The notes beneath the pieces are model-generated. The model had not been told where the DNA came from. It worked only from the letters and a program-made list of their open reading frames with translations, and searched no databases. From a virus, in the IMG/VR virus record IMGVR_UViG_3300042261_000762, positions 40,108 through 104,107 of that record: 64,000 bases of DNA; one strand, given 5' to 3'. Both the position numbers and the translations under genes were made by a program. Shown here in pieces: positions 2,482 through 39,962 of the stretch; position 1 is the first letter of the stretch; the number at the start of each line of letters is the position of its first letter.

Positions 2482-3700
2482 CGAGAAAAGATACACTCTA
2501 TTATCAGATAGAGAAAGATTTTATTTTGATGTATTAGCATCAGGAAATTCCCTCTATTTAAGAGGAAGACCAGGAACAGCAAAATCTGCAATTGGACTAT
2601 CAATGTCCAGAAAACTCAAGATCAGATATGTGGATAGAAGATTGAGTCAGATCGATGAGACAGATATTGGATTATACCCAGTATTAGATGATGGATTTAA
2701 GAATTTAGAAAAACTTGGAAAATTAATGGAATTTGGTTATCTAACAAATGAAGAGTTTAATGAAATGAAAAAACCAATCCTCGATAACATCATCAACGGG
2801 CAAGTTGATATTCTTCATTTTGCTGTTCCAGATTGGGCATTTTCAGCCAACGTTGAACCAACTATCGTTCATTTGGAAGAATTGAATAGGGCTAATCTTC
2901 ATGTAAGAAACGCTGCTCTTCAATTATTAAATGAAAGACAAATAGGCGATTTGAAACTAAATGATAATGTATATATCATGTCTTCTGGAAATCTTGGTGA
3001 AGAAGATGGCACTGAAGTTGATGAAATGGATTTGGCTTTAAGTAATCGTTTAGTCATAGTAGATCATGATTTGCCTTATGAAGAATGGATTAATGAATTT
3101 GCTCAATATCATGTGTGGCAAATAATTATAGATTATATAAGAGCAAATCCCGGTGAATACTATAAATTACCAAATGAAAAAGAATTAAGATATGCCACAC
3201 CTAGAAGTTGGACAAATTTATCAAAATTCATAACCCATAAATGGGGAAGAGAACCAGACTTAAAGGAAAATGTTATTCCTTTCTTATTACATAGCGGGAA
3301 ATGTTTTCTGGGGTCGAGTATAACAAATTTCACAAGATATTGTCAAGATATTTCTAATATTAATATCAATGATATTTTAATACGTTGGGAAGAAGTTAGA
3401 GCTGAAGTGGCTGGATTTAATAGATCAAGAATGTCGGAATTAATATCTAATTTGAGATACATGGATCTTAGGACACTAGACGAACTTCAATTTAGAAATT
3501 TATTAAATTTCCTATCCTCATTAAAAGACGATGATGAATTGACAAGTTACATAATTCATATACTTGACAGCACAAACGAATCCAATTATGATGTGAATAG
3601 TAGAATCATAAAACATTTTGATAAGAAAGTAAGAGAGTTAAGAAGTTATACAAGTCAAAATTTAAAGAAAGCTGAAACGACTGCTACTCCTCAGGTATAA
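2471..3700 (+). CDS. MoxR/AAA_5-like ATPase
   Basis: Walker A GRPGTAKS, Walker B LEELNRA, SNRL arginine finger, TPRSW. Confidence 0.85.
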   Translation: MKIDEKRYTLLSDRERFYFDVLASGNSLYLRGRPGTAKSAIGLSMSRKLKIRYVDRRLSQIDETDIGLYPVLDDGFKNLEKLGKLMEFGYLTNEEFNEMKKPILDNIINGQVDILHFAVPDWAFSANVEPTIVHLEELNRANLHVRNAALQLLNERQIGDLKLNDNVYIMSSGNLGEEDGTEVDEMDLALSNRLVIVDHDLPYEEWINEFAQYHVWQIIIDYIRANPGEYYKLPNEKELRYATPRSWTNLSKFITHKWGREPDLKENVIPFLLHSGKCFLGSSITNFTRYCQDISNININDILIRWEEVRAEVAGFNRSRMSELISNLRYMDLRTLDELQFRNLLNFLSSLKDDDELTSYIIHILDSTNESNYDVNSRIIKHFDKKVRELRSYTSQNLKKAETTATPQV

Positions 3701-5248: not shown

Positions 5249-5467
5249 AATCAAATGCTCAGAGATTAGGTGTGTTTTTATCAATTTTAACAATAATTGT
5301 ATGTGGAATTATTGGTGGAATGTTATGGTGCAAGATTTTTAGATTTTTGTAAAGGACACCCATATTGGATTTCTTCATGGATTTTGATTCTTCTTATTTT
5401 TGTAAATCCAGAAACATCTTATGATTTTTATAAAAAAATCAGTTATTTTTTTAGAATAATTTTTTAA
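5245..5467 (+). pseudogene. Small membrane protein gene, apparently frameshifted
   Basis: MKSNAQRLGVFLSILTIIVCGIIGGM continues in another frame as YGARFLDFCKGHPYWISSWILILLIFVNPE... Confidence 0.35.
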
Positions 5468-5564
5468 TTAAGCAAACTTTTTGTAATTTTGTAGTACAAA
5501 TTAAGAAATGGAAAAAATTGACATTTTTTGGTTAATATATAACAAAGTATAAAAATTAAATATT

Positions 5565-5645
5565 ATGAACTTTCGAATAGAGAATATGATACAAGAACAG
5601 ATGCAACAGATGGATAATCTGATTGGATGGACTATATCGTATTGA
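5565..5645 (+). CDS. Leader peptide of a putative tRNA-array attenuator (MNFRIENMIQEQMQQMDNLIGWTISY)
   Basis: 26-codon ORF rich in ATA/GAG/GAA/ATG/CAA/CAG, lying between the promoter and the terminator ahead of the first tRNA. Confidence 0.75.
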   Translation: MNFRIENMIQEQMQQMDNLIGWTISY

Positions 5646-5681
5646 CAAAGTTCTAGATGATATAAACAAAACCCAATCAGA
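5618..5681 (+). promoter_or_regulatory. Antiterminator helix
   Basis: TCTGATTGG (5618-5626) pairs with CCAATCAGA (5673-5681, terminator 5' arm); inner helix TATATCGT (5633-5640) with ATGATATA (5657-5664). Confidence 0.7.
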
Positions 5682-5706
5682 AAACTGATTGGGTTTTTTG
5701 TTTTTT
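5668..5706 (+). terminator. Intrinsic terminator (attenuator)
   Basis: AAAACCCAATCAG-aaaa-CTGATTGGGTTTT plus T-rich tail, ending 7 nt before the first tRNA. Confidence 0.9.
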
Positions 5707-5713
5707 GACATAT

Positions 5714-5784
5714 GCTCCTATCGTCTAAAGGAAGGATTCGACTTTTTCACAGTCGGGATGCGGTCTCGGGATCCGCTGGGAGTA
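5714..5784 (+). tRNA. tRNA-Glu(TTC) with atypical T loop
   Basis: Acceptor GCTCCTA/TGGGAGT; anticodon arm CGACT-TTTTCAC-AGTCG; T arm GCGGT-CTCGGGA-TCCGC. Confidence 0.75.
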
Positions 5785-5795
5785 CAAAAGATTAA

Positions 5796-5806
5796 GTTCT
5801 TTGACA
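5796..5806 (+). promoter_or_regulatory. boxA-like antitermination element
   Basis: GTTCTTTGACA in a tRNA spacer; similar GTTCATTGAA at 7585-7594. Confidence 0.4.
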
Positions 5807-5823
5807 TATTGGGAATAAATTAT

Positions 5824-5948
5824 AGGGAGGTAGTGTAATGGCTAGCACGACGTAATTCAACAAAAGTATTTTGACAAAAATATTTACAGCAAATCAAAAG
5901 AAGAGGCATCATAAGCCGTATGTGGATGTTCGAATCATCCCCTCCCAA
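5824..5948 (+). tRNA. tRNA(CAT) with a 53-nt insertion in the anticodon stem
   Basis: GGGAGG/CCTCCC acceptor; D arm GTGT/GCAC; T arm GGATG-TTCGAAT-CATCC; removing 5853-5905 restores ACGGC-ATCATAA-GCCGT. Confidence 0.65.
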
Positions 5949-6029
5949 CAAATTGAGAAATGGACTCATCATTCCGAATTTAAACGGTCACAAAAAATTC
6001 CATTGACAGTCTGGAAAGACAGACGACAT

Positions 6030-6111
6030 AGCAACGTGCCGGAGTGGTCTATCGGGGATGTCTCATAAGCATCTGGCTTTGCCTTCGTGGGTTCAAACCC
6101 CACCGTTGCTA
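6030..6111 (+). tRNA. Class II-type tRNA (long variable arm) with CAT anticodon
   Basis: AGCAACG/CGTTGCT acceptor; GATGT-CTCATAA-GCATC; variable arm GGC-TTT-GCC; T arm GTGGG-TTCAAAC-CCCAC. Confidence 0.8.
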
Positions 6112-6116
6112 CACAT

Positions 6117-6199
6117 CGCGGGGTCGAGTAGATGGCCCAGCTATCTGGTCTCCAGGTCTCCCCAAAAGGGAGTCGTAGGTTCGAATCCTACCCCCGCTA
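6117..6199 (+). ncRNA. tRNA-fMet-like RNA lacking an anticodon loop
   Basis: CGCGGGG/CCCCGCT acceptor and perfect T arm; anticodon arm reduced to CTGG-TCT-CCAG; extra arm CTCCC-CAAAA-GGGAG. Confidence 0.6.
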
Positions 6200-6213
6200 C
6201 TAAAAACAAACAT

Positions 6214-6289
6214 GGCCTCCTAGTGTAATGGTTGAGCATTTCTCCCTTTGAAGGAGCGGGTATTGGTTCGAATCCAGTGGGGGCTGCCA
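6214..6289 (+). tRNA. tRNA-Gln(TTG)
   Basis: Cloverleaf, loop CTTTGAA, encoded CCA. Confidence 0.9.
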
Positions 6290-6292
6290 AAT

Positions 6293-6363
6293 TGTTCTTT
6301 GGTGTAACGGGAGCATAAGTGACTCTGAATCACTCAGTCCTGGTTCGAATCCAGGAAGAACAA
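6293..6363 (+). tRNA. tRNA-Gln(CTG)
   Basis: Cloverleaf, AGTGA-CTCTGAA-TCACT. Confidence 0.9.
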
Positions 6364-6386
6364 CAACAAAAATAGGAGATAAAAAT

Positions 6387-6644
6387 ATGAAAGGTATTAC
6401 ATTTAAAATCAACGGAGAACTTTCAGAAGAAGGTAAAAAGAAACTTCTGAAACACATTGAGGAAGGTAGAAAAAAAATGGAAGCCAGAATTGAAAAGTAT
6501 AGAAAATACTTCGATCTTTTAGAAAAAATGAATAAAGATAATAGACACGAAGACTTCATTTATTTAGAGAATGGTAAACATTATATAGTATCTTGGGACA
6601 GTGGGAAATGGTCAGATCCGAGAGAAATTACATTTTTGGAATAA
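6387..6644 (+). CDS. Hypothetical protein within the tRNA array
   Basis: 85-aa ORF with GGAG upstream. Confidence 0.65.
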   Translation: MKGITFKINGELSEEGKKKLLKHIEEGRKKMEARIEKYRKYFDLLEKMNKDNRHEDFIYLENGKHYIVSWDSGKWSDPREITFLE

Positions 6645-6913
6645 ACTTAAAAAACGAACCTCGAACTTTTTATACATTAGAAACACATTGTAGAGGAAAT
6701 CTAATAATTGAAAGAATAGAAGAAAAAATAAAACAAAAACAAAAGAACTTCATACATGGTTTTATGTTAAGAAGGAAAGTAGAGAGACCAACTTATGAAA
6801 AACTAATTGACGAGATAGAAAATCTTGGACTAGAGGGAGTTGGTAGAAAATATGGAGTAACTGGTAAAGCGATTAAAAAATGGGTTATTACATATCAAAA
6901 ATATAATATATAA
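6593..6913 (+). pseudogene. Probable remnant of a homing-endonuclease C-terminal HTH
   Basis: RKVERPTYEKL...VGRKYGVTGKAIKKW is typical of HNH-associated HTH tails; no nuclease domain; weak start. Confidence 0.45.
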
Positions 6914-6918
6914 TGTAT

Positions 6919-6994
6919 TGATCATTAGCGCAATTGGTAGAGCGTTGGGTTTTGGTCCCAAAGGTTGGAGGTTCGAACCCTCCATGATCAACCA
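6919..6994 (+). tRNA. tRNA-Gln(TTG)
   Basis: TGATCAT/ATGATCA acceptor; TTGGG-TTTTGGT-CCCAA; encoded CCA. Confidence 0.9.
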
Positions 6995-7006
6995 AAGTTT
7001 TTTATT

Positions 7007-7528
7007 ATGAAGAAATTATTTACTATATTATTCATTATTATATCATTCTGTCTAAACGCCCAAACAAAGGGAACTTTCACAGATAATCGTGACAATAAAA
7101 CCTACAGATGGATAAAAATAGGCGAACAAGTTTGGATGAGGGATAATCTAAAATATAAAGATACAATATTTTATGATTATAAATCTGAAAAAAAGAATGA
7201 TACATTAAAACTAGTTGCTTCTTGTCCAGATGGATGGCATCTACCAACACTAATAGAATGGAATCAATTGTTTACTACTCTTGGAAGAGTAAATGCTGCT
7301 AATAGATTGCAAGAAGAAAATAGTTTTGATTGTTTATTGAATGGTAGATATAATGCTGATATAAAATCAGTTGAAAATAGAGGAACACATGCATATTACT
7401 GGACTTCGACTGTTAGAGATGAAAATACAATGTGGACAATATTTATATTTTATGGTTCTGGAATGACAAGTAAAATAGATGGTGATAAGAGATATGGTTA
7501 TTCTATAAGATGTATAAAAGATAAATAA
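7007..7528 (+). CDS. Secreted FISUMP (Fibrobacter succinogenes major paralogous) domain protein
   Basis: Signal peptide MKKLFTILFIIISFCLNA; DNRDNKTY, IGEQVWMRDNL, CPDGWHLPT, YYWTS, SIRCIKD. Confidence 0.85.
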   Translation: MKKLFTILFIIISFCLNAQTKGTFTDNRDNKTYRWIKIGEQVWMRDNLKYKDTIFYDYKSEKKNDTLKLVASCPDGWHLPTLIEWNQLFTTLGRVNAANRLQEENSFDCLLNGRYNADIKSVENRGTHAYYWTSTVRDENTMWTIFIFYGSGMTSKIDGDKRYGYSIRCIKDK

Positions 7529-7610
7529 TTTTCCTGAAATTTTTTTAATTCGTAAATAAGTCGTATTTTTGTATTGTTAAATCAGTTCATTGAATTATTG
7601 AAAAATATAT

Positions 7611-7684
7611 GGCGGGGTAGAGCAGAAGAAGCTCGTCGGGCTCATAATCCGAAGGTCGTGGTTGAGCATTTCCCACCCCCGCAA
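7611..7684 (+). tRNA. tRNA-fMet(CAT)-like with aberrant T loop
   Basis: TCGGG-CTCATAA-TCCGA; 1:72 mismatch; T arm GTGG-TTGAGCATTTC-CCAC. Confidence 0.65.
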
Positions 7685-7689
7685 CACAT

Positions 7690-7764
7690 CGCGGGATGGA
7701 GCAGAGGTAGCTCGCAAGGCTCATAACCTTGAGGCCGAGGGTTCGATCCCCTCTCCCGCAACCA
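7690..7764 (+). tRNA. tRNA-fMet(CAT)
   Basis: C1:A72 mismatch, CAAGG-CTCATAA-CCTTG, encoded CCA. Confidence 0.9.
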
Positions 7765-7767
7765 AAT

Positions 7768-7840
7768 GGTCTCGTAGCTCAGGGGTGAGAGCAGGAAGCT
7801 TATACCTTCAAGGTCGGTGGTTCAATTCCATCCGGGACTA
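7768..7840 (+). tRNA. tRNA-Ile(TAT)
   Basis: Cloverleaf, loop CTTATAC. Confidence 0.85.
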
Positions 7841-7850
7841 CAAATAAAAC

Positions 7851-7924
7851 TGGAGTGTAACTCAGTTGGTTAGAGTTCGAAGCTTATACCTTCGCGGTCG
7901 GGGGTTCAAGTCCCTCCACTCCAA
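7851..7924 (+). tRNA. tRNA-Ile(TAT)
   Basis: Cloverleaf, CGAAG-CTTATAC-CTTCG. Confidence 0.85.
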
Positions 7925-7928
7925 CAAT

Positions 7929-8048
7929 AGATAGTAAACCAGCTTCCCTATTCGCGACGGTGCCTATCCTACAAGGCCGGAACCATTAGCACCCGAGGGA
8001 ACAATTAAGGTGGGAAGGGCGAGTCTCCCAATCTAACTGGAACTATCT
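7929..8048 (+). ncRNA. Candidate 120-nt structured RNA of unknown class
   Basis: GC-rich island with nested helices AGATAGT/ACTATCT, CCAG/CTGG, TTCCCT/AGGGAA, GGTGC/GCACC and TGGGA/TCCCA. Confidence 0.55.
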
Positions 8049-8084
8049 TAAATTTTAATAAATAAATCAAAAAAACAACTAAAT

Positions 8085-8309
8085 ATGAAGATTCTCAGAA
8101 AAGGTGACGATTTCGTCAAAATGAATGACGCTACTGTTCAGGACATTGCGAAAATTGAAGATAAGATTAAAGATGGTTGGAAGTATTCTCCAAAGAAAGA
8201 TTACAAGGATTTTTATAAAGCCGAAAAGACAGCGACAGAAGTAAAGACCGAAGAGAAGAAAGAGAAGAAGGCAAAGGAAAAGAAAGAAAAAAATAAGAAT
8301 AAAAAATAA
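8085..8309 (+). CDS. Small Lys/Glu-rich hypothetical protein
   Basis: 74-aa ORF with an A-rich start region. Confidence 0.7.
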   Translation: MKILRKGDDFVKMNDATVQDIAKIEDKIKDGWKYSPKKDYKDFYKAEKTATEVKTEEKKEKKAKEKKEKNKNKK

Positions 8310-8330
8310 TATATATCCATAAAAATTATT

Positions 8331-8876
8331 ATGTATAAGATAATTGTAAAAGGACCAGCTGGCGAATCAAATGTTTCTGATAGAAAAAAATTAGACGGCA
8401 TTGATTGTCAGGACGAATTCTCTGAATATTTTCATGAAGCTTGGAATATAGGGGGAAAAGAAGATAGAAATCAGCAGAATTTGATTGATAAAGGAGTATC
8501 CGGTGGTTATATGAGGTTCGAATATGAACACAATAAACTATACGTAATAGTTGAGTATAATTCCGATGAAAAATTAAACGATGATGAAATCGAAGAGTTG
8601 AAAGACTACACCCAAGGTCAACTTTCCGACGGTATTGGTGAGGGATTTGAACAACAACCAGTCATGTATGAGAACGATAAAGAAATTTTTATATCTCCCT
8701 GGTTTAGAGGACAAAAACTAAAAGTTGAACAAATTGAAGATGATACAATTGAACCAAAAAAGAAAGTCGCTGAAGATGATAATACATATTGGGAAGACCA
8801 ATGTAAAAAAGATATAGAAAAAATGAACGCTTTAATGGACGAATTAAAAAAACTCCTCGATAAAGATAAAAAATAA
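8331..8876 (+). CDS. Hypothetical protein (GQLSDGIGEGFEQ motif)
   Basis: 181-aa ORF. Confidence 0.75.
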   Translation: MYKIIVKGPAGESNVSDRKKLDGIDCQDEFSEYFHEAWNIGGKEDRNQQNLIDKGVSGGYMRFEYEHNKLYVIVEYNSDEKLNDDEIEELKDYTQGQLSDGIGEGFEQQPVMYENDKEIFISPWFRGQKLKVEQIEDDTIEPKKKVAEDDNTYWEDQCKKDIEKMNALMDELKKLLDKDKK

Positions 8877-8882
8877 CTAAAC

Positions 8883-8957
8883 GCTCCTGTCGTCTAATCG
8901 GTTAGGACATCGCCCTTTCACGGCGAAGATTTGCGGGTTCGAGTCCCGTCGGGAGTA
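8883..8957 (+). tRNA. tRNA-Glu(TTC)
   Basis: Canonical cloverleaf, TCGCC-CTTTCAC-GGCGA. Confidence 0.92.
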
Positions 8958-8969
8958 CAAAAAATTTAC

Positions 8970-9042
8970 CGCCCTATCGACTAACAGGCTAGGTCACCGC
9001 TCTCTCACAGCGGAAATTCGGAATCGTACTCCGATAGGGTGA
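8970..9042 (+). tRNA. tRNA-Glu(CTC) with atypical T loop ATCGTAC
   Basis: CGCCCTA/TAGGGTG acceptor; CCGCT-CTCTCAC-AGCGG. Confidence 0.85.
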
Positions 9043-9255
9043 CTCCTTTCAATATTAAAGATATAGTAGATTTTGCACATTTAAGTTTTCTTGCAATATC
9101 TATTTTTTTAGACCCATCTTTGTATCTATTTTATCCCACACTTTTTTATCCATAGTTCGTTTTCTTTTGAGTAGATAAAAAAATTGAACTATTTCTATTT
9201 TATAAACAAGTACAATAATGTATAATATATACTATGTAAAAAGAATCAAGTTTTT

Positions 9256-13686: not shown

Positions 13687-13765
13687 AACAAAAAAAACCT
13701 TGCCCGGGCACCAATGCAGGAGACCAGGACTTAAAGTCGGTTTTTCTATTTAATATCGAAAGATA

Positions 13766-14107
13766 TTAAGATCTCACTCTTCTAGAACCTTCTCCCCAGT
13801 TTCTAATACCTGTTTCCGACCATTTTCCTCCTTCATAATTAAAATACATAGCATCAGGATGCTCGGCTATGAATGTTATAAACTTCTGAGCGGCTTCTGA
13901 ATCTTTTTGTAACCATTTATCATATACCACTTTATATTTAGGATTTCTGGCTATCATTTGTTTACCTTTTTGTACTAATTCTTCGGGTGTCAAGAATCCA
14001 GCTCCTTTTCTGACAGCATTACCAACACCTTTCCAGTCTTCTCCTTTAAATGGATTGAATTCTTCGTTTGTATATGTTTCAAATGTTTTTAAATGATTAA
14101 GTTTCAT
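13766..14107 (-). CDS. Hypothetical protein with capsid-targeting-like N-terminus
   Basis: MKLNHLKTFETYTNEE. Confidence 0.75.
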   Translation of the reverse strand: MKLNHLKTFETYTNEEFNPFKGEDWKGVGNAVRKGAGFLTPEELVQKGKQMIARNPKYKVVYDKWLQKDSEAAQKFITFIAEHPDAMYFNYEGGKWSETGIRNWGEGSRRVRS

Positions 14108-14124
14108 ATCTAGTTTTTTATTTT

Positions 14125-14760
14125 TTATTCATCGTCATCAAAATCGAAGTCTATATCTTCTATTTCAGATTTATTCTCGTCCCATTCGTCATCTTCACCG
14201 TAGACTTCTTGTTTGGCTTGATTCAATAATCTTTTTCTCGTGCCTTCACCAGGGTCGAGATTTCCTTTTTTCTTGGATTGATTTCTTCTCCATTCTTTTA
14301 ATAGTCTTTGATAAACTGCGTCTACTTCACTATCACCAATTTCGTCTTCTATTAAATCATCATCGTCTTCATCTAAATCATCTTCGTCATCATATGGACC
14401 ATCTACAACCATATCGAAGTTTACTATGTATTTGACTTCATAAGTTTCAGATGCTCTTTCAAGATAATCTAGTGTTACTTCATACATTCTTTTCTTTTTT
14501 GCTCCTTCGGTAACTTCTAAAGTTAATTGTTCGTTAGGATCGATATATTGGAAATCTTGTTCAGTAACGTAAAATGACATAACAAGTCCTTCATCAGGAA
14601 CAAATTCAAATTTAGGTTTTTTAACTCTATCAAATATATCTCCAGCTATTTTCTTAGCTGTTTCTATGACTTCATTTGGAACATCATCCAACGATCTAGC
14701 TTCCTTATCAGAATCAACGGCCTCATTAACAAAGTGTCTATATTTTCTGAGTATGTCCAT
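14125..14760 (-). CDS. Acidic hypothetical protein
   Basis: MDILRKYRHFVNEA; D/E-rich tracts. Confidence 0.8.
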   Translation of the reverse strand: MDILRKYRHFVNEAVDSDKEARSLDDVPNEVIETAKKIAGDIFDRVKKPKFEFVPDEGLVMSFYVTEQDFQYIDPNEQLTLEVTEGAKKKRMYEVTLDYLERASETYEVKYIVNFDMVVDGPYDDEDDLDEDDDDLIEDEIGDSEVDAVYQRLLKEWRRNQSKKKGNLDPGEGTRKRLLNQAKQEVYGEDDEWDENKSEIEDIDFDFDDDE

Positions 14761-14840
14761 CTTTAATAATTCTTTTGTTTTGCTTTATATATTAATATAA
14801 AAAATTCATTTTTTTATTTTCTTGATAATTTTCTTTTTCT

Positions 14841-15899
14841 TTACTTAAGAAAGTCTGGATCCTTATTTTCGAAATAATCATATAGTAATGTATAGATTTT
14901 ATCTAATTTCCTATCCATTTTTTTACCAACTTTATTGAAATATCTTGTATATCTATCCAATGTGGCGTCTAATTCAACCTCTGTTATTTTTTTATCTATG
15001 TCTATTTTGATTGGAATGTTTTTGAAAAAATCTTCTACACTATCAAATTCAGATATTCTTTTACCTAATTGTTTCATTACAGTAAAGAAAATTAATTTCT
15101 GGTCTGTTGTTGTTACGGGCGTTGTTTTGCCATCCTTTGTTCTGGCTTTTACATTAAACATTTTCTTCACATCAACATTTGATAAATCTCTAGCTAATCT
15201 AAATTCATAATTTTTTCTTTTAGTGAAATAATCTCTTAATTCTTGAACGTTCTTAATTTTTCTATATTTTAATTTGCCGTATAATTCTGCCACAAAAGAT
15301 CCTTGTTCTATATTTATCGATAGATAAACAAGACTAAGAAAATCTCTATATGGGAAAACATCAAAACTCTCTTTCAAAATATTATTTCTTAAATATTTTG
15401 GATTGAATTTCATTTTAGTCTTACCCATTTTAACAAATTGTATAGCGTGATTTACTTCGTGATAAATATAATGTTTCCATATTTTATCTCTAAGTTTTCT
15501 ATGAGTAAATGAAAAATGGAAAATATATCCGTCTTTTGTTAATTTGGAATGTAGCGGATCAAAAGAACCTTCAGATTTAGGATCAAATTTTTCTGTTTTA
15601 CCACTGGAGTTTATTACATTTACAGAACTCCTATAATTTATTATTATTTTATATAAATTAATATCCAATTCGGGAAGTTCATCTATATTTATTACATCTC
15701 TTTGTCTATGTCTCCCCAAGAGTCTTTGTAATAAAGGTAAATTTTTCTTATTTTCTTTATTTTCCTTTTGAAAAACGTAAGTCTTGTCCGGTTCAGCCTT
15801 GTTTAATTTATTAATAATAAAGTCAGATAAAACTTCAACATCTTTATTAACTCCAAGCCTTTCATTCACGAAACTATAATATTTATGAATAGACATCAT
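14841..15899 (-). CDS. Putative zincin-like metalloprotein
   Basis: HEVNH (HExxH) motif; capsid-targeting-like start HKYYSFVNE. Confidence 0.6.
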   Translation of the reverse strand: MMSIHKYYSFVNERLGVNKDVEVLSDFIINKLNKAEPDKTYVFQKENKENKKNLPLLQRLLGRHRQRDVINIDELPELDINLYKIIINYRSSVNVINSSGKTEKFDPKSEGSFDPLHSKLTKDGYIFHFSFTHRKLRDKIWKHYIYHEVNHAIQFVKMGKTKMKFNPKYLRNNILKESFDVFPYRDFLSLVYLSINIEQGSFVAELYGKLKYRKIKNVQELRDYFTKRKNYEFRLARDLSNVDVKKMFNVKARTKDGKTTPVTTTDQKLIFFTVMKQLGKRISEFDSVEDFFKNIPIKIDIDKKITEVELDATLDRYTRYFNKVGKKMDRKLDKIYTLLYDYFENKDPDFLK

Positions 15900-24964: not shown

Positions 24965-25432
24965 ATGAAAAAGCTATTATTAACTCTGTTATCATTCTTG
25001 GCTTCCGTAATTGTCTTTGGCCAAGTTCAGTTTGATCAAATGATCAACATCGACGACTATTTAGGTCTCAATAAACAACAAATTAAAAAGGTAATGAAAT
25101 CTGAAGGTATAAAACCAAACATTTCAGATAAATTATATGTTATTGTTAATGAAAAAGGAAGTTGGGATTTAGATGAAAAGAATTACTCTTATATATTTGA
25201 CTATGATGATTATCATATAATATCATCATTTAATAATATTACAGATAAATGTGTTCGCACACACGTAAAAACTAAAATAGATTATTTTTATGATTATGTT
25301 AAATTATTTGATAAAACATACAAGAGAAGTAATAGCGATTTAGTTTGGTATGGTGCAGATGTAAAAATAGTTATACACTTTATAATATCAGAAGACAAAT
25401 ATTATATGGGAATATATTACGAAAAACAATAA
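24965..25432 (+). CDS. Secreted hypothetical protein
   Basis: Signal peptide MKKLLLTLLSFLASVIVFGQ. Confidence 0.75.
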   Translation: MKKLLLTLLSFLASVIVFGQVQFDQMINIDDYLGLNKQQIKKVMKSEGIKPNISDKLYVIVNEKGSWDLDEKNYSYIFDYDDYHIISSFNNITDKCVRTHVKTKIDYFYDYVKLFDKTYKRSNSDLVWYGADVKIVIHFIISEDKYYMGIYYEKQ

Positions 25433-25448
25433 AAAATAACTAAAAAAG

Positions 25449-25640
25449 ATGGAAGTAAAAGAATTGCAATTTATTAAAGGAAAAACCTTAAATGAAGCTA
25501 AGAAATTAGTTGAACCATTCTGGATTGAAGAAACCAGAGTTGATGGAGTTGATAAATATGTTTCGGCTGAGCTACATAAGAAAAGAATTTTAGTTGAAAC
25601 TTCCAAAGGAATAATTACAAAAATTATAGGAAATTATTAA
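25449..25640 (+). CDS. Small protein, possibly protease-inhibitor I78-like fold
   Basis: GKTLNEAKK...KRILVETSKGIITKI pattern. Confidence 0.5.
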   Translation: MEVKELQFIKGKTLNEAKKLVEPFWIEETRVDGVDKYVSAELHKKRILVETSKGIITKIIGNY

Positions 25641-25671
25641 AATAAATATTAAATTTGTAAAAAGAAAAGTT

Positions 25672-26166
25672 ATGAAGAAAATTTTTATGACATTGATTGG
25701 TATTGTATTTACAATAACCACTTTATTTGGACAAACTTTCATTGGCATGGATAAGAAAGATGTAATGAAAGATATTAAAGTTAACGCTAAGAGTATTGGA
25801 AAGCCTGAAAAGGATGATAGAGGTTATTACTCTATTACTGCTAAATTTGATAATAACACAAACATGTATTCATTTACCGATGAAGATATGTGTTATTTCT
25901 ACATGATTATGGAATATTATAGTTTAGAAAGATATAACTTTACTCTAAATTATTACGACCAAAATTATTTGAGAATTTATGATGATAGAAAAGAAAATAA
26001 ATTTGATAATACTGTAACTATTTGGAAAGAACCAAAAGGAGAAACTCTCATCTATAGATGGATTGTAGTAAATTATAATACTGGTGTCATGTACACACTC
26101 TATCTAACAAAAGAAAATTACGAGAATAATAAATATTCTTATTTGAAATCACTATTAGGGAGTTAA
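25672..26166 (+). CDS. Secreted hypothetical protein
   Basis: Signal peptide MKKIFMTLIGIVFTITTLFGQ. Confidence 0.75.
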   Translation: MKKIFMTLIGIVFTITTLFGQTFIGMDKKDVMKDIKVNAKSIGKPEKDDRGYYSITAKFDNNTNMYSFTDEDMCYFYMIMEYYSLERYNFTLNYYDQNYLRIYDDRKENKFDNTVTIWKEPKGETLIYRWIVVNYNTGVMYTLYLTKENYENNKYSYLKSLLGS

Positions 26167-26168
26167 AA

Positions 26169-26692
26169 ATGAAAATAAGAATAAATAAAGCCGGGAATAA
26201 AAAACATCTTCGTACAAGATAACGAATCAAAATCTAAAAAAAGGGACACTGAGGGGATTACACTTTCAGTGTCCTCCTTTTGAACAAGGAAAATTAGTTA
26301 GAGTTATAAATGGTTCGGCGAGTGGTATAAGAACTTAGTAAATGAAGAATTTGATGTTGATGTTGTGACAAGATACATCGGTTATTGATTTCGCTGTAGA
26401 TTTAAGGAAAAATTCACCAACTTACGGTAAATGGACATCCGCTACACTAACATCTGAAAATAAACATATATTCTGGGTGCCACCGGGATTTGCACACGGT
26501 TTTGTGGCATTAGAAGATGATACAGTTTTTTCTTATAAATGTACAAATGTATATAATAAAGAATCCGAAAGATGTATAATATGGAATGATGAGGATTTAA
26601 ATATAGATTGGCAAATAAAATCCCCAATATTATCGTTAAAAGATACTATGGGGATTTCATTTAAAGATTTTGAATCGCCTTTTATTCTATAG
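26169..26692 (+). pseudogene. rmlC: dTDP-4-dehydrorhamnose 3,5-epimerase, disrupted
   Basis: FVQDNESKSKKGTLRGLHFQ...QGKLVRV, VDLRKNSPTYGKW, WVPPGFAHGF; N-terminus shortened and frameshifted; 63-nt insert with stops at 26318-26380. Confidence 0.85.
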
Positions 26693-27701
26693 ATTTCATA
26701 GTTTTTAGAATTTTTCTTGTTACTCTATAAGGATCCATATTTGAAGCCGGTCTTCTATCTTCCAAATACCCCTTCCAATCATTTAAAGGAACAGATATAG
26801 GAATTCTAATTGATGCTCCTCTATCAGATAATCCATAAGAAAAAGTATTTATATCAGCAGTTTCATGATGCCCTGTCAATCTTTCATCATTATTTGACCC
26901 ATAAGCCAAGATATGTTCATCGTGGTTTTTTCTTAAAGCTTCACATATACTTGTAAAATATTCTCTGCCTCCTTCATCTCTCATTTTAGTATTCGAAAAA
27001 TTAACGTGACACCCACTCCCATTCCAGTTTCCTTTAACTGGTTTTGGGTGAAGTTCTATTTTTAGACTATATTTTTCTGATAATCTATTTAATAAATACC
27101 TAGCCAACCAGAGATCGTCCGATGCTTGTTGTGCCCCTTTTCCAAATAACTGAAATTCCCACTGTCCAAGTAATACTTCAGCATTTATCCCTGTTACATC
27201 AAGACCAGATTCTAAACAGGCATCTAGGTGTTCTTCAACTAATTGTCTAGCCTCAACGTGTCCGTGACCTACTGAGCAATAATACATACCTTGTCCTTCT
27301 GGATAACCATTTTCAGGAAAACCAACTGGTCTATTTGTTTTAGGATTTATTAGTGTATATTCTTGTTCAAACCCCCACCAAAAATCACTATCATTTGAAT
27401 ATTCGTTTAATTTTGCCCTTCTATTAGAGATATGTGGCGTTCTGTCTGGATTAAGAACTTCGCACATAACAAGAAAAGCATTTTTTCTCTGTGGATCTTT
27501 TATCATTCTAACTGGTTTTATCAAACAATCAGAAGAATGACCGTCTGCTTGTTGAGTTGAACTTCCATCGAAACTCCACTCTGGCAATTGCCACGGATAT
27601 TGAAATTCTTCTTTTAGAACTTTAGTTTTGGATCTAAGATTTGGGTCGGGTCTGTACCCATCTAACCAAATATATTCATAACGGTATTTCTCAAGTATCA
27701 T
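26682..27701 (-). CDS. glnII: Glutamine synthetase type II
   Basis: EYIWLDG, LRSKTK, WSFDGSST, GINAEV...QWEFQ, WNGSGCH, RLTGHHET, EDRRPASN. Confidence 0.95.
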   Translation of the reverse strand: MILEKYRYEYIWLDGYRPDPNLRSKTKVLKEEFQYPWQLPEWSFDGSSTQQADGHSSDCLIKPVRMIKDPQRKNAFLVMCEVLNPDRTPHISNRRAKLNEYSNDSDFWWGFEQEYTLINPKTNRPVGFPENGYPEGQGMYYCSVGHGHVEARQLVEEHLDACLESGLDVTGINAEVLLGQWEFQLFGKGAQQASDDLWLARYLLNRLSEKYSLKIELHPKPVKGNWNGSGCHVNFSNTKMRDEGGREYFTSICEALRKNHDEHILAYGSNNDERLTGHHETADINTFSYGLSDRGASIRIPISVPLNDWKGYLEDRRPASNMDPYRVTRKILKTMKSIE

Positions 27702-27894: not shown

Positions 27895-28140
27895 TTACCA
27901 AGATGAAGCGAATTTTTTATCTCCCCAGTGAAAATCAATAAAATTAACTTTACACGGTTTTCCTATTAATCTAATATAATATGTGTTATCTTCAAAACCA
28001 AAGGTGTCTTGAAGACAATCCATAATAGTAGATTTCCCTGCACCGTTATCTATTTTTTCTAGAAATATAAAATCTTTTAATGTTTTCTTGGTTACTTCTT
28101 CTTCCTCAGTATGTTGTTCGTTGAATTTTAAAACTTTCAT
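27895..28140 (-). CDS. Small protein with isolated P-loop-like segment
   Basis: MKVLKFNE start; DNGAGKST. Confidence 0.6.
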   Translation of the reverse strand: MKVLKFNEQHTEEEEVTKKTLKDFIFLEKIDNGAGKSTIMDCLQDTFGFEDNTYYIRLIGKPCKVNFIDFHWGDKKFASSW

Positions 28141-28535
28141 TTGAAGTCATTGTATTTTTTTATTCTTTCATCGACGGAATCTTTTCCATACCACTTTATA
28201 TTTCCACCGTTGAAATTATTAGCATCCATTTCATTTAATAATTCATCTTTATATTCTTGTGCTTTTTTCTTAGTTCCTTTGGAATAATATCCTCCTTTGT
28301 AATTAATTATATGATCTAAAGTATTTTTTATAAATTCCTCTGCAGTCGTTACTCTTGTGCCGACTACTTTCATGTTTTCTCCTTCTACTGTAATAGATCC
28401 ATTACAACACTCACCCCATCCTTCTTCCATTAAATCTTGATCCATTTCTGTTAATCTCTCAGATTCAAACCAACGAGGATAAGCTGATCCATCTCCACCA
28501 TTACCGACTGAATACCATAAAGTTAATTTTGCCAT
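28137..28535 (-). CDS. Hypothetical protein
   Basis: IKWYGKD motif; C-terminal RIKKYNDFK. Confidence 0.75.
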   Translation of the reverse strand: MAKLTLWYSVGNGGDGSAYPRWFESERLTEMDQDLMEEGWGECCNGSITVEGENMKVVGTRVTTAEEFIKNTLDHIINYKGGYYSKGTKKKAQEYKDELLNEMDANNFNGGNIKWYGKDSVDERIKKYNDFK

Positions 28536-29487: not shown

Positions 29488-30234
29488 TTATTTTGCAAAT
29501 TTAAGTTTTAATACACTTTCCAAGAAATTTGTTCCAGGAAACATTAGATCTATATTCAATAAATAAGAATCCAATTCTTTATCGTAATCATAACCACTGA
29601 ATTGCATTTCATCAAAATTACTAAATAAACTTAAAGCATATTTATATTGAGACTCCTTATCAAAATAAAAGAAATCTTTTTCATTTAAAATATAATCTCT
29701 AAATATCTGAGTATTAAAATATTGAGATGTAGTAATAAAACTAATTTCATCAAATAGTGACTTGAATCCTTTTTTCAGATATATGTCAAAATCAAGATCT
29801 AGATATTCTATGATATATTTTAGGTTATTAGATATGTTTAGTGGATTTTCTGTAGCTATGTATTTTAGGCCGCTTGGTTCGAGATTCATTCCCATTTTAT
29901 TTAGCATAACATTCATAAGAGTTGGAAGGATGTCCCAACTATAATAGAAGAATGTTGGTATAAATTCGCTGTCTGGAGTAAGAATAAAAACAAATCTAAA
30001 ATCCTTATAATAAAAGTCAACGAATCTGCCTATTTTTTGATATTCATTTGATTTGAATATATCTTCAAGAATTGTTATGTCGGTTTCTTGTGGTATGATT
30101 ATTTTAATATAATCAAATAACTGTTTTTCTTTATAAACAAAAGGAATTTCATTACGAATTTCCTTTCCATCTAATTTATCAGAAACTTCTTTAAGAAGTT
30201 TAAGGAATTCAGGTCTTTCCAGTTTCCTGCTCAT
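29488..30234 (-). CDS. Hypothetical protein, possibly a degenerate nucleotidyltransferase-like fold
   Basis: 248-aa ORF; no clear catalytic motif. Confidence 0.55.
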   Translation of the reverse strand: MSRKLERPEFLKLLKEVSDKLDGKEIRNEIPFVYKEKQLFDYIKIIIPQETDITILEDIFKSNEYQKIGRFVDFYYKDFRFVFILTPDSEFIPTFFYYSWDILPTLMNVMLNKMGMNLEPSGLKYIATENPLNISNNLKYIIEYLDLDFDIYLKKGFKSLFDEISFITTSQYFNTQIFRDYILNEKDFFYFDKESQYKYALSLFSNFDEMQFSGYDYDKELDSYLLNIDLMFPGTNFLESVLKLKFAK

Positions 30235-30454
30235 ATAATTTTATTAATTCATTTTTTGCATCCATATAAGATGGAAAAACTTTAACATTGGCATATTCCA
30301 AATCGTTCTCAAGAATATATGCCCATCCATACCATTTTCTTTCTTTTATGGCATAGAACCACACGGCGTTTAATCTCTTCTTAGCGGTGAAAGAAGTCTT
30401 TGATATTGACCAAGTACTTACTTTTCTATATTTAACTATTTTATATTTTTTCAA
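30209..30454 (-). CDS. Hypothetical protein
   Basis: 81-aa ORF overlapping its neighbours. Confidence 0.65.
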   Translation of the reverse strand: MKKYKIVKYRKVSTWSISKTSFTAKKRLNAVWFYAIKERKWYGWAYILENDLEYANVKVFPSYMDAKNELIKLYEQETGKT

Positions 30455-30860
30455 TTAACTCATTAAATTTTTCTTCAAATATGATATTATCTGGTATTTC
30501 TTCAATTCTAAACATCATAGCCATTTCCTCGGGAGAATAGAAATTTAAATTTGTGCCTTCGCCTTTGTATGCAATAAAAAAATCTTTATCTGGATTCTCC
30601 TTTGCAAATACATAAAGTCCATGTATTTCTTGCATTATCTGTCCAACTGTTCTGCTAGGTTGTTTTTTCTTTGTCAAATCTTTTGTTATAATAGCATAAG
30701 ATTGTCCTTGCATACCGTGACACCTTCCATATATGGCTCCGAAATTTTGATAAGCATATAGGGCTGCACCTTTACCGTGTCGACCTTCTGTGTTAGCACC
30801 AAATACAAATATTTCATTAGGTAATAATTCTTTTATATCACCTTTATAAGTTCTTCTCAT
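30441..30860 (-). CDS. Conserved phage protein, macro-like (IFVFGxNxxGxHGxGAA family)
   Basis: EIFVFGANTEGRHGKGAA...GQSYAI. Confidence 0.8.
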   Translation of the reverse strand: MRRTYKGDIKELLPNEIFVFGANTEGRHGKGAALYAYQNFGAIYGRCHGMQGQSYAIITKDLTKKKQPSRTVGQIMQEIHGLYVFAKENPDKDFFIAYKGEGTNLNFYSPEEMAMMFRIEEIPDNIIFEEKFNELIEKI

Positions 30861-39857: not shown

Positions 39858-39962
39858 TTTAGAACATTCTTTTTTTGTTATATAATTTTTTAACTGAAAG
39901 GTTTTATTTATCAAAAAAACAATTTTTTGAATTTAATATATAACAAAAAGAAAATATTAACC

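Follow-up and report, generated by a model that had tools for sequence, protein, structure and literature searches.

A short leader open reading frame (ORF), an intrinsic terminator and the first gene of a tRNA array follow one another in a phage genome, and together they probably (about 85%) form a ribosome-mediated transcription attenuator of the trp/his/ilv type which regulates the tRNA operon behind it. The element, here named unit D, is located in a stretch of 64,000 nucleotides (nt) analysed at its full length ("the window"), corresponding to bases 40108-104107 of the 104-kb linear virus record IMGVR_UViG_3300042261_000762 (IMG/VR). By its sequence, unit D belongs to a cis-regulatory family in which each main tRNA array of this phage and of its relatives has a leader written in its own amino acids, and the tRNA set of each array would probably be made only when its codons are decoded slowly. 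The family is well supported; its putative function would join a known type of mechanism to a new target, tRNA genes.

The virus record, estimated to be ~32% complete, originated from lake/freshwater metagenomes and belongs to a huge uncultured phage, the closest GenBank relative of which is the 735-kb uncultured phage LR756501. The window has a G+C content of ~29%. At least 41 tRNAs were present in the genome, grouped in at least 4 arrays (four main ones, plus strand); three of the main arrays are located upstream of the window, and the fourth (array D) is inside it. The leaders start in A-rich contexts with no Shine-Dalgarno motif, as do most of the phage's genes (the motif was present in 7 of 72), which is compatible with a Bacteroidota-like host. 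No RNA run was listed with a match to window 5300-7300, and two metatranscriptome runs of the same study yielded no contigs matching the stretch; the matches came from DNA runs only, which probably are the source samples, and this has no bearing either way.

The components of unit D, numbered by window position, were the following:

5484..5491 (+): TAATTTTG, a Bacteroidota-type -7-like motif in the sequence, possible upstream host-type promoter.
5508..5542 (+): conserved box of 35 nt (A-run, GAC, T-run, about 5 nt, AATATATAA), putative promoter.
5565..5645 (+): leader ORF of 26 codons plus TGA, with an ATG start, from the ORF listing and its orthologues.
5577..5612 (+): regulatory codons 5-16, core peptide IENMIQEQMQQM, defined by their match to the array anticodons.
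5618..5626 (+): region 2, at codons 18-21 of the ORF, putative 5' strand of the antiterminator and complementary to 5673-5681.
5633-5640/5657-5664 (+): inner helix enclosing the stop codon, predicted by folding as the apical part of a composite antiterminator hairpin.
5668..5706 (+): intrinsic terminator found by a terminator scan (13-bp stem at 5668-5697, 4-nt loop, T-run to 5706).
5714..9043 (+): array D, tRNAs and five small ORFs, from ARAGORN and Rfam.

The initial annotation of this DNA, made from the letters alone, had proposed the ORF at 5565-5645, the terminator at 5668-5706 and the first tRNA at 5714, and all three were found at these positions. The pairings that it had proposed were also recovered: 5618-5626 is the exact reverse complement of 5673-5681 (region 3, within the 5' arm of the terminator), and the inner helix consists of 8 bp with one G.U pair. 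The terminator was the only terminator-like site on the plus strand between 4900 and 9600, its hairpin alone folded at -17.2 kcal/mol, and the T-run ended 8 nt before the first tRNA; the fold of the full leader had a z-score of -5.3 with respect to shuffled sequences. A promoter-like element proposed at 5533 (TAATATATA) was present, but as part of the conserved 35-nt box and not as an element by itself. This box preceded all four leaders of the genome and all five leaders of LR756501, and had no second copy in the window at three mismatches or fewer. Looser copies of it were found upstream of protein genes (CspA at genome position 26647, and others at window positions 39910 and 14785), which indicates that the box is most likely a general phage promoter class and not a component of the sensor. 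The block around TAATTTTG (window 5455-5560) was 75% identical to the block preceding another leader of the same genome (leader C, see below).

Leader D orthologues of equal length, or two codons shorter, were found in LR756501 and at the loci L022/L131 and L081, and codons 8-15 were invariant across the four orthologues except for one synonymous CAG/CAA change. Another relative, from the same lake sample, matched the window at 5551-5599, 5710-5783 and 6235-6307; in it the 3' part of the leader and the terminator were replaced by 106 other letters, and 5784-6234 by 152. It resembles a strain in which the attenuator has diverged and the split tRNA (described below) and a Met tRNA are missing.

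The evidence for a sensing role begins with the codons themselves. Eleven of the 12 codons at positions 5-16 of leader D are decoded by the anticodons of the array downstream (Ile-UAU, Glu-CUC, Glu-UUC, Met-CAU, Gln-UUG and Gln-CUG), and all six types are sampled by codon 12, as initially annotated. Codons read by array D represent 17% of the codons in the long ORFs of the phage, giving a binomial estimate of 4e-8 for 11 matches in one 12-codon window. Among the 100,729 stop-free 12-codon windows of the whole 104-kb genome (six frames), one reached this score: leader D.

The phage's own genome was searched with the leader region, which recovered partial copies before the other arrays. Each of the four arrays opens in the same way, with the conserved box, an ORF of 22-31 codons and an intrinsic terminator:

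Unit A, leader at genome 10227-10322 (+): core SKHSKHSSFSSKWF; tRNAs Trp, His, Phe, Lys-UUU, Lys-CUU and Ser.
Unit B, leader at genome 24127-24204 (+): ten Leu codons of five kinds; tRNAs Leu-GAG, Leu-UAG, Leu-CAA and Leu-UAA (five Leu tRNAs downstream).
Unit C, leader at genome 27804-27872 (+): core VYNINDCIYNDK; tRNAs Ile-GAU, Cys, Asp, Asn, Lys-CUU, Tyr and Val.
Unit D, leader at window 5565-5645 (+): core IENMIQEQMQQM; tRNAs Ile-UAU, Glu, Met and Gln.

When the best 12-codon window of each leader was scored against each array, the four-by-four matrix was diagonal: 7, 8, 12 and 11 matches for units A to D with their own arrays, vs. 1-6 off the diagonal. The 12 of 12 window of unit C was likewise unique in the genome. 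A candidate fifth attenuator after array C (genome 31556-31663) was rejected: it had no box, no complementarity between regions 2 and 3, and no downstream tRNAs.

The same arrangement was conserved in related phages. LR756501, with 66 clustered tRNAs, has five units: orthologous leaders of all four types, and a fifth leader with a Thr/Pro/Ala/Val/Arg/Gly-rich core ahead of an Arg/Thr/Val/Ala/Gly/Phe/Pro array. A promoter-box scan of IMG/VR gave 20 further units (box, ORF, terminator and tRNAs), 16 of them with new leaders; 64 of the 86 box matches had no terminator within 330 nt and are, by their sequence, ordinary promoters or chance matches. One candidate from a scan with a degenerate leader pattern (L130) was discarded as a GC-rich chance match. 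The set of non-identical units contained 25: four from the window genome, five from LR756501 and 16 from IMG/VR.

As a test, the initial annotation had proposed asking whether, among related phages, the codons of a leader change together with the anticodons of its array. This co-variation was found, and leaders matched to their arrays were present throughout the 25 units. The mean best 12-codon score was 8.52 for leaders with their own arrays vs. 3.79 ± 0.52 after permutation of the arrays (0 of 20,000 permutations as high); the permutation p-values of this analysis overstate independence because the units share ancestry. The amino-acid contingency between leaders and arrays had an odds ratio of 13.5 (p = 6e-28), and in the nine complete arrays 87% of the distinct anticodons had a cognate codon in their own leader, vs. 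38% in leaders of other types. Leader content also tracks array content when tRNAs move between arrays: L075, with Gln tRNAs in its array, has Gln codons in its Thr/Gly/Ala/Pro leader; L027, with Ile-GAU in its array, has Ile codons in its Trp/Lys/His/Phe leader; and L023 has a Ser/Leu/His/Tyr leader ahead of exactly a Tyr/Ser/His/Leu array.

This variation bears on another explanation, in which the leader ORFs would encode functional micropeptides and their composition would be selected for the peptide, not for its decoding. In its favour, the leader N-termini are alike (often MKN...) and types B, C and D share a C-terminal LIG motif; against it, the order of the core residues was shuffled between orthologues while the composition was kept (leader A, own genome vs. 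LR756501), leader composition followed the array and not the phylogenetic type, and region 2, itself constrained by RNA pairing, encodes the C-terminal residues that recur. Micropeptides are a highly improbable account of the leaders.

The codon match was confined to the frame of the ATG (8.56 vs. 3.0 and 3.2 in the other two frames, p = 1e-5), which favours reading by a ribosome over RNA-RNA contact. Direct sensing of tRNA by codon-like specifier triplets, as in a T-box and with no translation, would share with these units the regulated tRNA and aminoacyl-tRNA synthetase genes of T-box regulons and the choice between terminator and antiterminator. It would leave unexplained why 10-14 contiguous in-frame codons stand between a conserved ATG and a stop codon, and why the match is lost off-frame; the folds showed no Stem I or specifier-loop architecture, and neither a T-box nor any known leader family was matched at Rfam gathering scores, or at E-values up to 1 for the unit in the window. 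Sensing of the T-box kind is thus hardly tenable here.

The second line of evidence for ribosome-mediated attenuation is the switch itself. In every unit, region 2 (in the 3' part of the ORF) and the terminator 5' arm (region 3) were complementary to each other, with sequences that differed from unit to unit (for example TTCGGGGTT/AACCCCGAA, GGATTGGGT/ACCCAATCC and GGGTGTGGG/CCCACACCC). Matched changes in regions 2 and 3 distinguished close relatives (L027 vs. L052; L013, L032 and L063 from one another). Counting of pairs in MAFFT alignments (A-type and Thr/Ala/Pro-type units; A1, A2) was abandoned because regions 2 and 3 were out of register in divergent units, and leader/terminator partners were permuted instead: duplexes between a unit's own regions 2 and 3 had a mean energy of -15.2 kcal/mol, vs. 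-8.9 ± 0.6 with permuted partners (0 of 5,000). The composite antiterminator hairpin was predicted in all 23 units folded, and most of these had an inner helix of differing sequence between regions 2 and 3 near the stop codon.

Unit D was also folded as the RNA present before the 3' arm of the terminator is made, with a 30-nt ribosome footprint masked, and the folds gave the switch that the initial annotation had predicted. With the A site at codons 1-14, region 2 paired with the 5' arm of the terminator with a probability (P) of ~0.66; with the A site at codons 16-20 this fell to 0.01-0.2, and it stayed below 0.35 up to codon 26, region 2 being covered by the footprint with the A site at codons 16-26. 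The effective sensor of leader D would accordingly be codons 5-14, in which all six anticodon types are still sampled.

The sequence of events proposed for unit D would be as follows. Transcription would start at the phage promoter box and RNA polymerase would enter the 26-codon leader ORF. Fast reading of codons 5-14 would bring the ribosome over region 2 (5618-5626) and the inner helix, and with region 2 covered the terminator (5668-5697 plus the T-run) would form and stop transcription 8 nt before the first tRNA. A ribosome slowed on any Ile-AUA, Glu, Met or Gln codon would leave region 2 free to pair with the 5' arm of the terminator as it emerges, with read-through into the cognate tRNA genes. 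Since the tRNA product would relieve the stall, the result would be a closed loop of negative feedback, acting on the amount of charged cognate tRNA available. From the sequence we infer that the leader is translated, that the box acts as a promoter, that ribosome and polymerase are coupled, and what the physiological trigger would be; the attenuation logic itself, as initially proposed, was supported by the frame-specific match and by the co-variation of antiterminator and terminator.

Several observations, besides the shared ancestry of the units, weigh against this mechanism. In ribosome-free equilibrium folds of the truncated RNA the antiterminator was still formed (P 0.5-0.9), so that a trp-like 1:2 protector helix is weak or doubtful, and untranslated leader D RNA may, according to these models, read through instead of terminating; the full-length minimum-free-energy fold paired 5604-5611 with 5617-5625. 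With a ribosome at the stop codon of leader D the footprint just clears region 2 (P 0.61), and termination would therefore need steric exclusion or timing. Leader A has six Ser codons that the only confident tRNA-Ser of its array (CGA) does not cover: Rfam gave no further tRNA-Ser gene in array A at E-values up to 1, and ARAGORN at an 85% threshold gave two low-confidence Ser-GGA candidates, which explain these codons only partly. Matching at the level of isoacceptors was mixed and is partly supported: the association between tRNAs with C at position 34 (C34) and NNG leader codons was only a trend (odds ratio 3.1, p = 0.06), in a comparison blurred by truncated arrays at the ends of loci. Finally, an internal element at 7560-7581 (see below) could drive the distal CAU and Ile-UAU tRNAs of array D independently of the attenuator.

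That internal element is also an argument for a constitutive insulating terminator, with the tRNAs transcribed from internal promoters and the small ORF present by chance, as short ORFs are common in AT-rich DNA. The comparative tests make this very unlikely. Chance fails to explain the genome-unique codon window and the four diagonal matches, and equally the 25-unit match (0 of 20,000), its frame specificity and the co-varying antiterminator; the 8 nt between the T-run and the first tRNA leave no room for a promoter.

Array D contained, in order, Glu-UUC, a split CAU tRNA, Met-CAU, an odd tRNA-like gene, Gln-UUG and Gln-CUG, and then Gln-UUG, CAU, Met-CAU, two Ile-UAU, Glu-UUC and Glu-CUC. 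Three of its tRNA-like genes were additional to the ARAGORN list, and are given here with the internal element:

5824-5948 (+): split tRNA(CAU), missed by ARAGORN; Rfam tRNA match of 36.6 bits over the whole span.
6118-6197 (+): odd tRNA-like gene; weak tRNA-Sec-like match of 26 bits, below threshold.
7560..7581 (+): element containing TATTTTTG, a repeated 22-mer, putative internal promoter.
7611-7684 (+): additional CAU tRNA with an unusual T arm, absent from the ARAGORN list; Rfam match of 36.8 bits.

The initial annotation had stated that the array has no anticodons other than the six types. This held for the two extra CAU genes, which add no new type; it cannot be extended to the gene at 6118-6197, which has no anticodon assignment. 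This last gene has good acceptor and T arms, a long variable arm and no normal 7-nt anticodon loop, and an element resembling it was found at genome 11665-11753. The split tRNA carries an insert of ~53 nt within the 5' strand of the anticodon stem; its LR756501 orthologue (L001, ~3318-3445) has a longer, unrelated insert in the same place. The insert is too short to be a group I intron, and its position is not the canonical one. In the array's first tRNA (5714-5785, Glu-UUC) the T loop is non-canonical; this loop is conserved in LR756501 with compensatory changes.

The initial caveat that promoters inside the array might act on the distal tRNAs holds for the one proposed at 7564. The 22-nt element at 7560-7581 (GTCGTAT.TTTGTAT.GTTAAA) has a Bacteroidota -7-like TAnnTTTG motif, and a near-identical 22-mer recurs at genome 26990-27011, ahead of tRNA-Leu-UAA; both copies are placed 30-160 nt before a tRNA, followed by AGTTCATTGAA. 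By its sequence it is likely to be an unregulated internal promoter. A G+C-rich stretch with no ORF (window 7925-8040, +), directly after the Ile-UAU tRNAs, may be a structured RNA; a comparable block is present at genome 27040-27170, ahead of tRNA-Leu-UAA. A protein with a Fib_succ_major domain and an apparent signal peptide is encoded between the tRNAs of array D (window 7007-7528, +).

The other arrays, upstream of the window, contain further genes related to translation, which would be gated by the same leaders:

Genome 25099-26658: short LeuRS (gated operon B).
Genome 13690-14409: truncated TrpRS-like protein of 239 aa (array A).
Genome 14581-15201: truncated HisRS-like protein of 206 aa (array A).
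Genome 28094-28462: ribosomal protein bL12 (array C).
Genome 26734-26922: cold-shock protein (inside the gated arrays).
Genome 30199-30662 (L009:10199-10662): GOLLD RNA (RF02032, 163 bits, above gathering score), in array C downstream of attenuator C.

The LeuRS gene directly follows the Leu tRNAs and encodes 519 aa (TIGR00396, 570 bits, above cut-off; the model has 843 positions), and a tRNA-Lys-CUU is embedded in the GOLLD RNA. An HNH endonuclease with an HTH domain is encoded in array A (genome 10567-11115).

The purpose of the attenuator may be considered separately from its mechanism. Host defences that cleave tRNAs exist, and phage tRNAs can substitute for the cleaved species. The same attenuator could then serve counter-defence, as an isoacceptor-resolved sensor of tRNA integrity which induces replacement tRNAs when particular tRNAs are lost to host anticodon nucleases or host shut-off. 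This would agree with the presence of all six anticodon types of array D within codons 5-12, with the 87% of anticodons represented in their own leader, and with the Ile codons, which in one and the same genome are ATA in the leader of the Ile-UAU array and ATT in that of the Ile-GAU array; this ATA/ATY split tracked the Ile-UAU and Ile-GAU arrays (p = 0.026) and lends support to the initial proposal that isoacceptors would be sensed individually. The C34/NNG association, only a trend, counts against a purpose in counter-defence; moreover, sequence cannot tell cleavage from amino-acid starvation, high demand by AT-rich genes or weak charging, and the co-regulated cognate synthetases suit a general supply of charged tRNA better than the repair of cleaved tRNA. 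Because the sensor would answer any shortage of charged cognate tRNA equally, a trigger by host tRNA cleavage is something that we infer; an anti-defence trigger is plausible, and as the specific purpose of the attenuator it seems unlikely.

A wider proposal, which we consider speculative and rather unlikely, is that the leaders together form a genome-wide, modular monitor with isoacceptor resolution, in which each module would be induced separately by slow reading of its own codons and would let the phage rebuild the part of the host tRNA pool that had been lost, whether to defence nucleases, to host shut-off or to the phage's own AT-rich codon demand. The modules would comprise tRNAs, a cognate synthetase and sometimes a ribosomal protein or the GOLLD RNA. 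If true, this would be a circuit for counter-defence and for the allocation of resources, of which no precedent has been described.

The control of bacterial and phage tRNA genes is usually ascribed to promoter strength, growth-rate control or repressors. With an attenuator before the tRNA genes, how much of a tRNA is made would depend directly on how fast its codon is decoded. This, if true, would explain how huge phages with 40-70 tRNAs avoid needless production, would give a simple reason for the sorting of tRNAs into amino-acid-specific arrays, and would make each leader readable as a roster of the tRNAs that the phage expects to run short. An old question, whether phage tRNAs serve codon usage or replace tRNAs lost to host defence, would become testable, and the leaders, as compact natural multi-tRNA sensors, would possibly be useful in synthetic biology.

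Compared with known systems, unit D showed four features of the leader-peptide attenuators: a leader ORF, cognate codons, an intrinsic terminator and a mutually exclusive antiterminator. The enterobacterial representatives include trpL, hisL, leuL and pheL, and the multivalent thr (Thr and Ile) and ilvGMEDA (Ile, Leu and Val) leaders. Like these, the phage units have a short ORF rich in regulatory codons and an intrinsic terminator, and an antiterminator whose 5' strand is located within the ORF or directly behind it; the position of the ribosome would decide the outcome, and several amino acids would be sensed, as in the multivalent leaders. Unlike them, the targets are tRNA and cognate synthetase genes and not biosynthetic enzymes, so that the loop would close on the decoding machinery. 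A single leader samples as many as seven amino acids and 13 anticodon species, the 1:2 protector helix appears weak, sequence homology is absent, and the modules are a phage-encoded set of paralogues. None of the amino-acid leader families of Rfam (Thr, Leu, His, Trp and others) was matched at its gathering score, the Thr_leader match of unit A being weak and non-significant (23.4 bits, E = 0.4, gathering score 55).

The pheST operon of E. coli (pheM leader) is a synthetase operon under leader-peptide attenuation. It resembles the phage units in placing a gene of the translation apparatus under the decoding speed of cognate codons, here the LeuRS behind a Leu leader and the TrpRS-like and HisRS-like genes behind a leader with Trp and His codons; unlike the phage units, it senses a single amino acid and contains no tRNA genes. 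T-box riboswitches bind uncharged tRNA directly, are not translated, and regulate synthetase and related genes. The likeness is in the choice between terminator and antiterminator in answer to tRNA status; no RF00230-type T-box was matched at gathering scores or at E-values up to 1.

The tRNA clusters of large phages (T4, T5 and huge phages) have been seen as compensation for codon usage or as replacement of cleaved tRNAs, and the present arrays resemble them in accompanying other translation genes (bL12, synthetases and CspA). In the full-text literature searched (with few of the subscription journals) there was no account of leader-peptide attenuation of tRNA genes, nor of demand-sensing control of phage tRNA arrays. 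The closest printed analogue found for a stress-induced accessory tRNA array was the long tRNA array of Anabaena (the trn operon), which is induced under translational stress (PMC8421152) and controlled by the repressor TrcR (PMC10272220); neither of these papers mentions a leader, an attenuator or a terminator. Like the phage arrays, as proposed here, the trn operon is an accessory tRNA array, silent by default and switched on when translation is impaired; it differs in its control by a protein repressor and in being bacterial, plasmid-borne and not sorted by amino acid.

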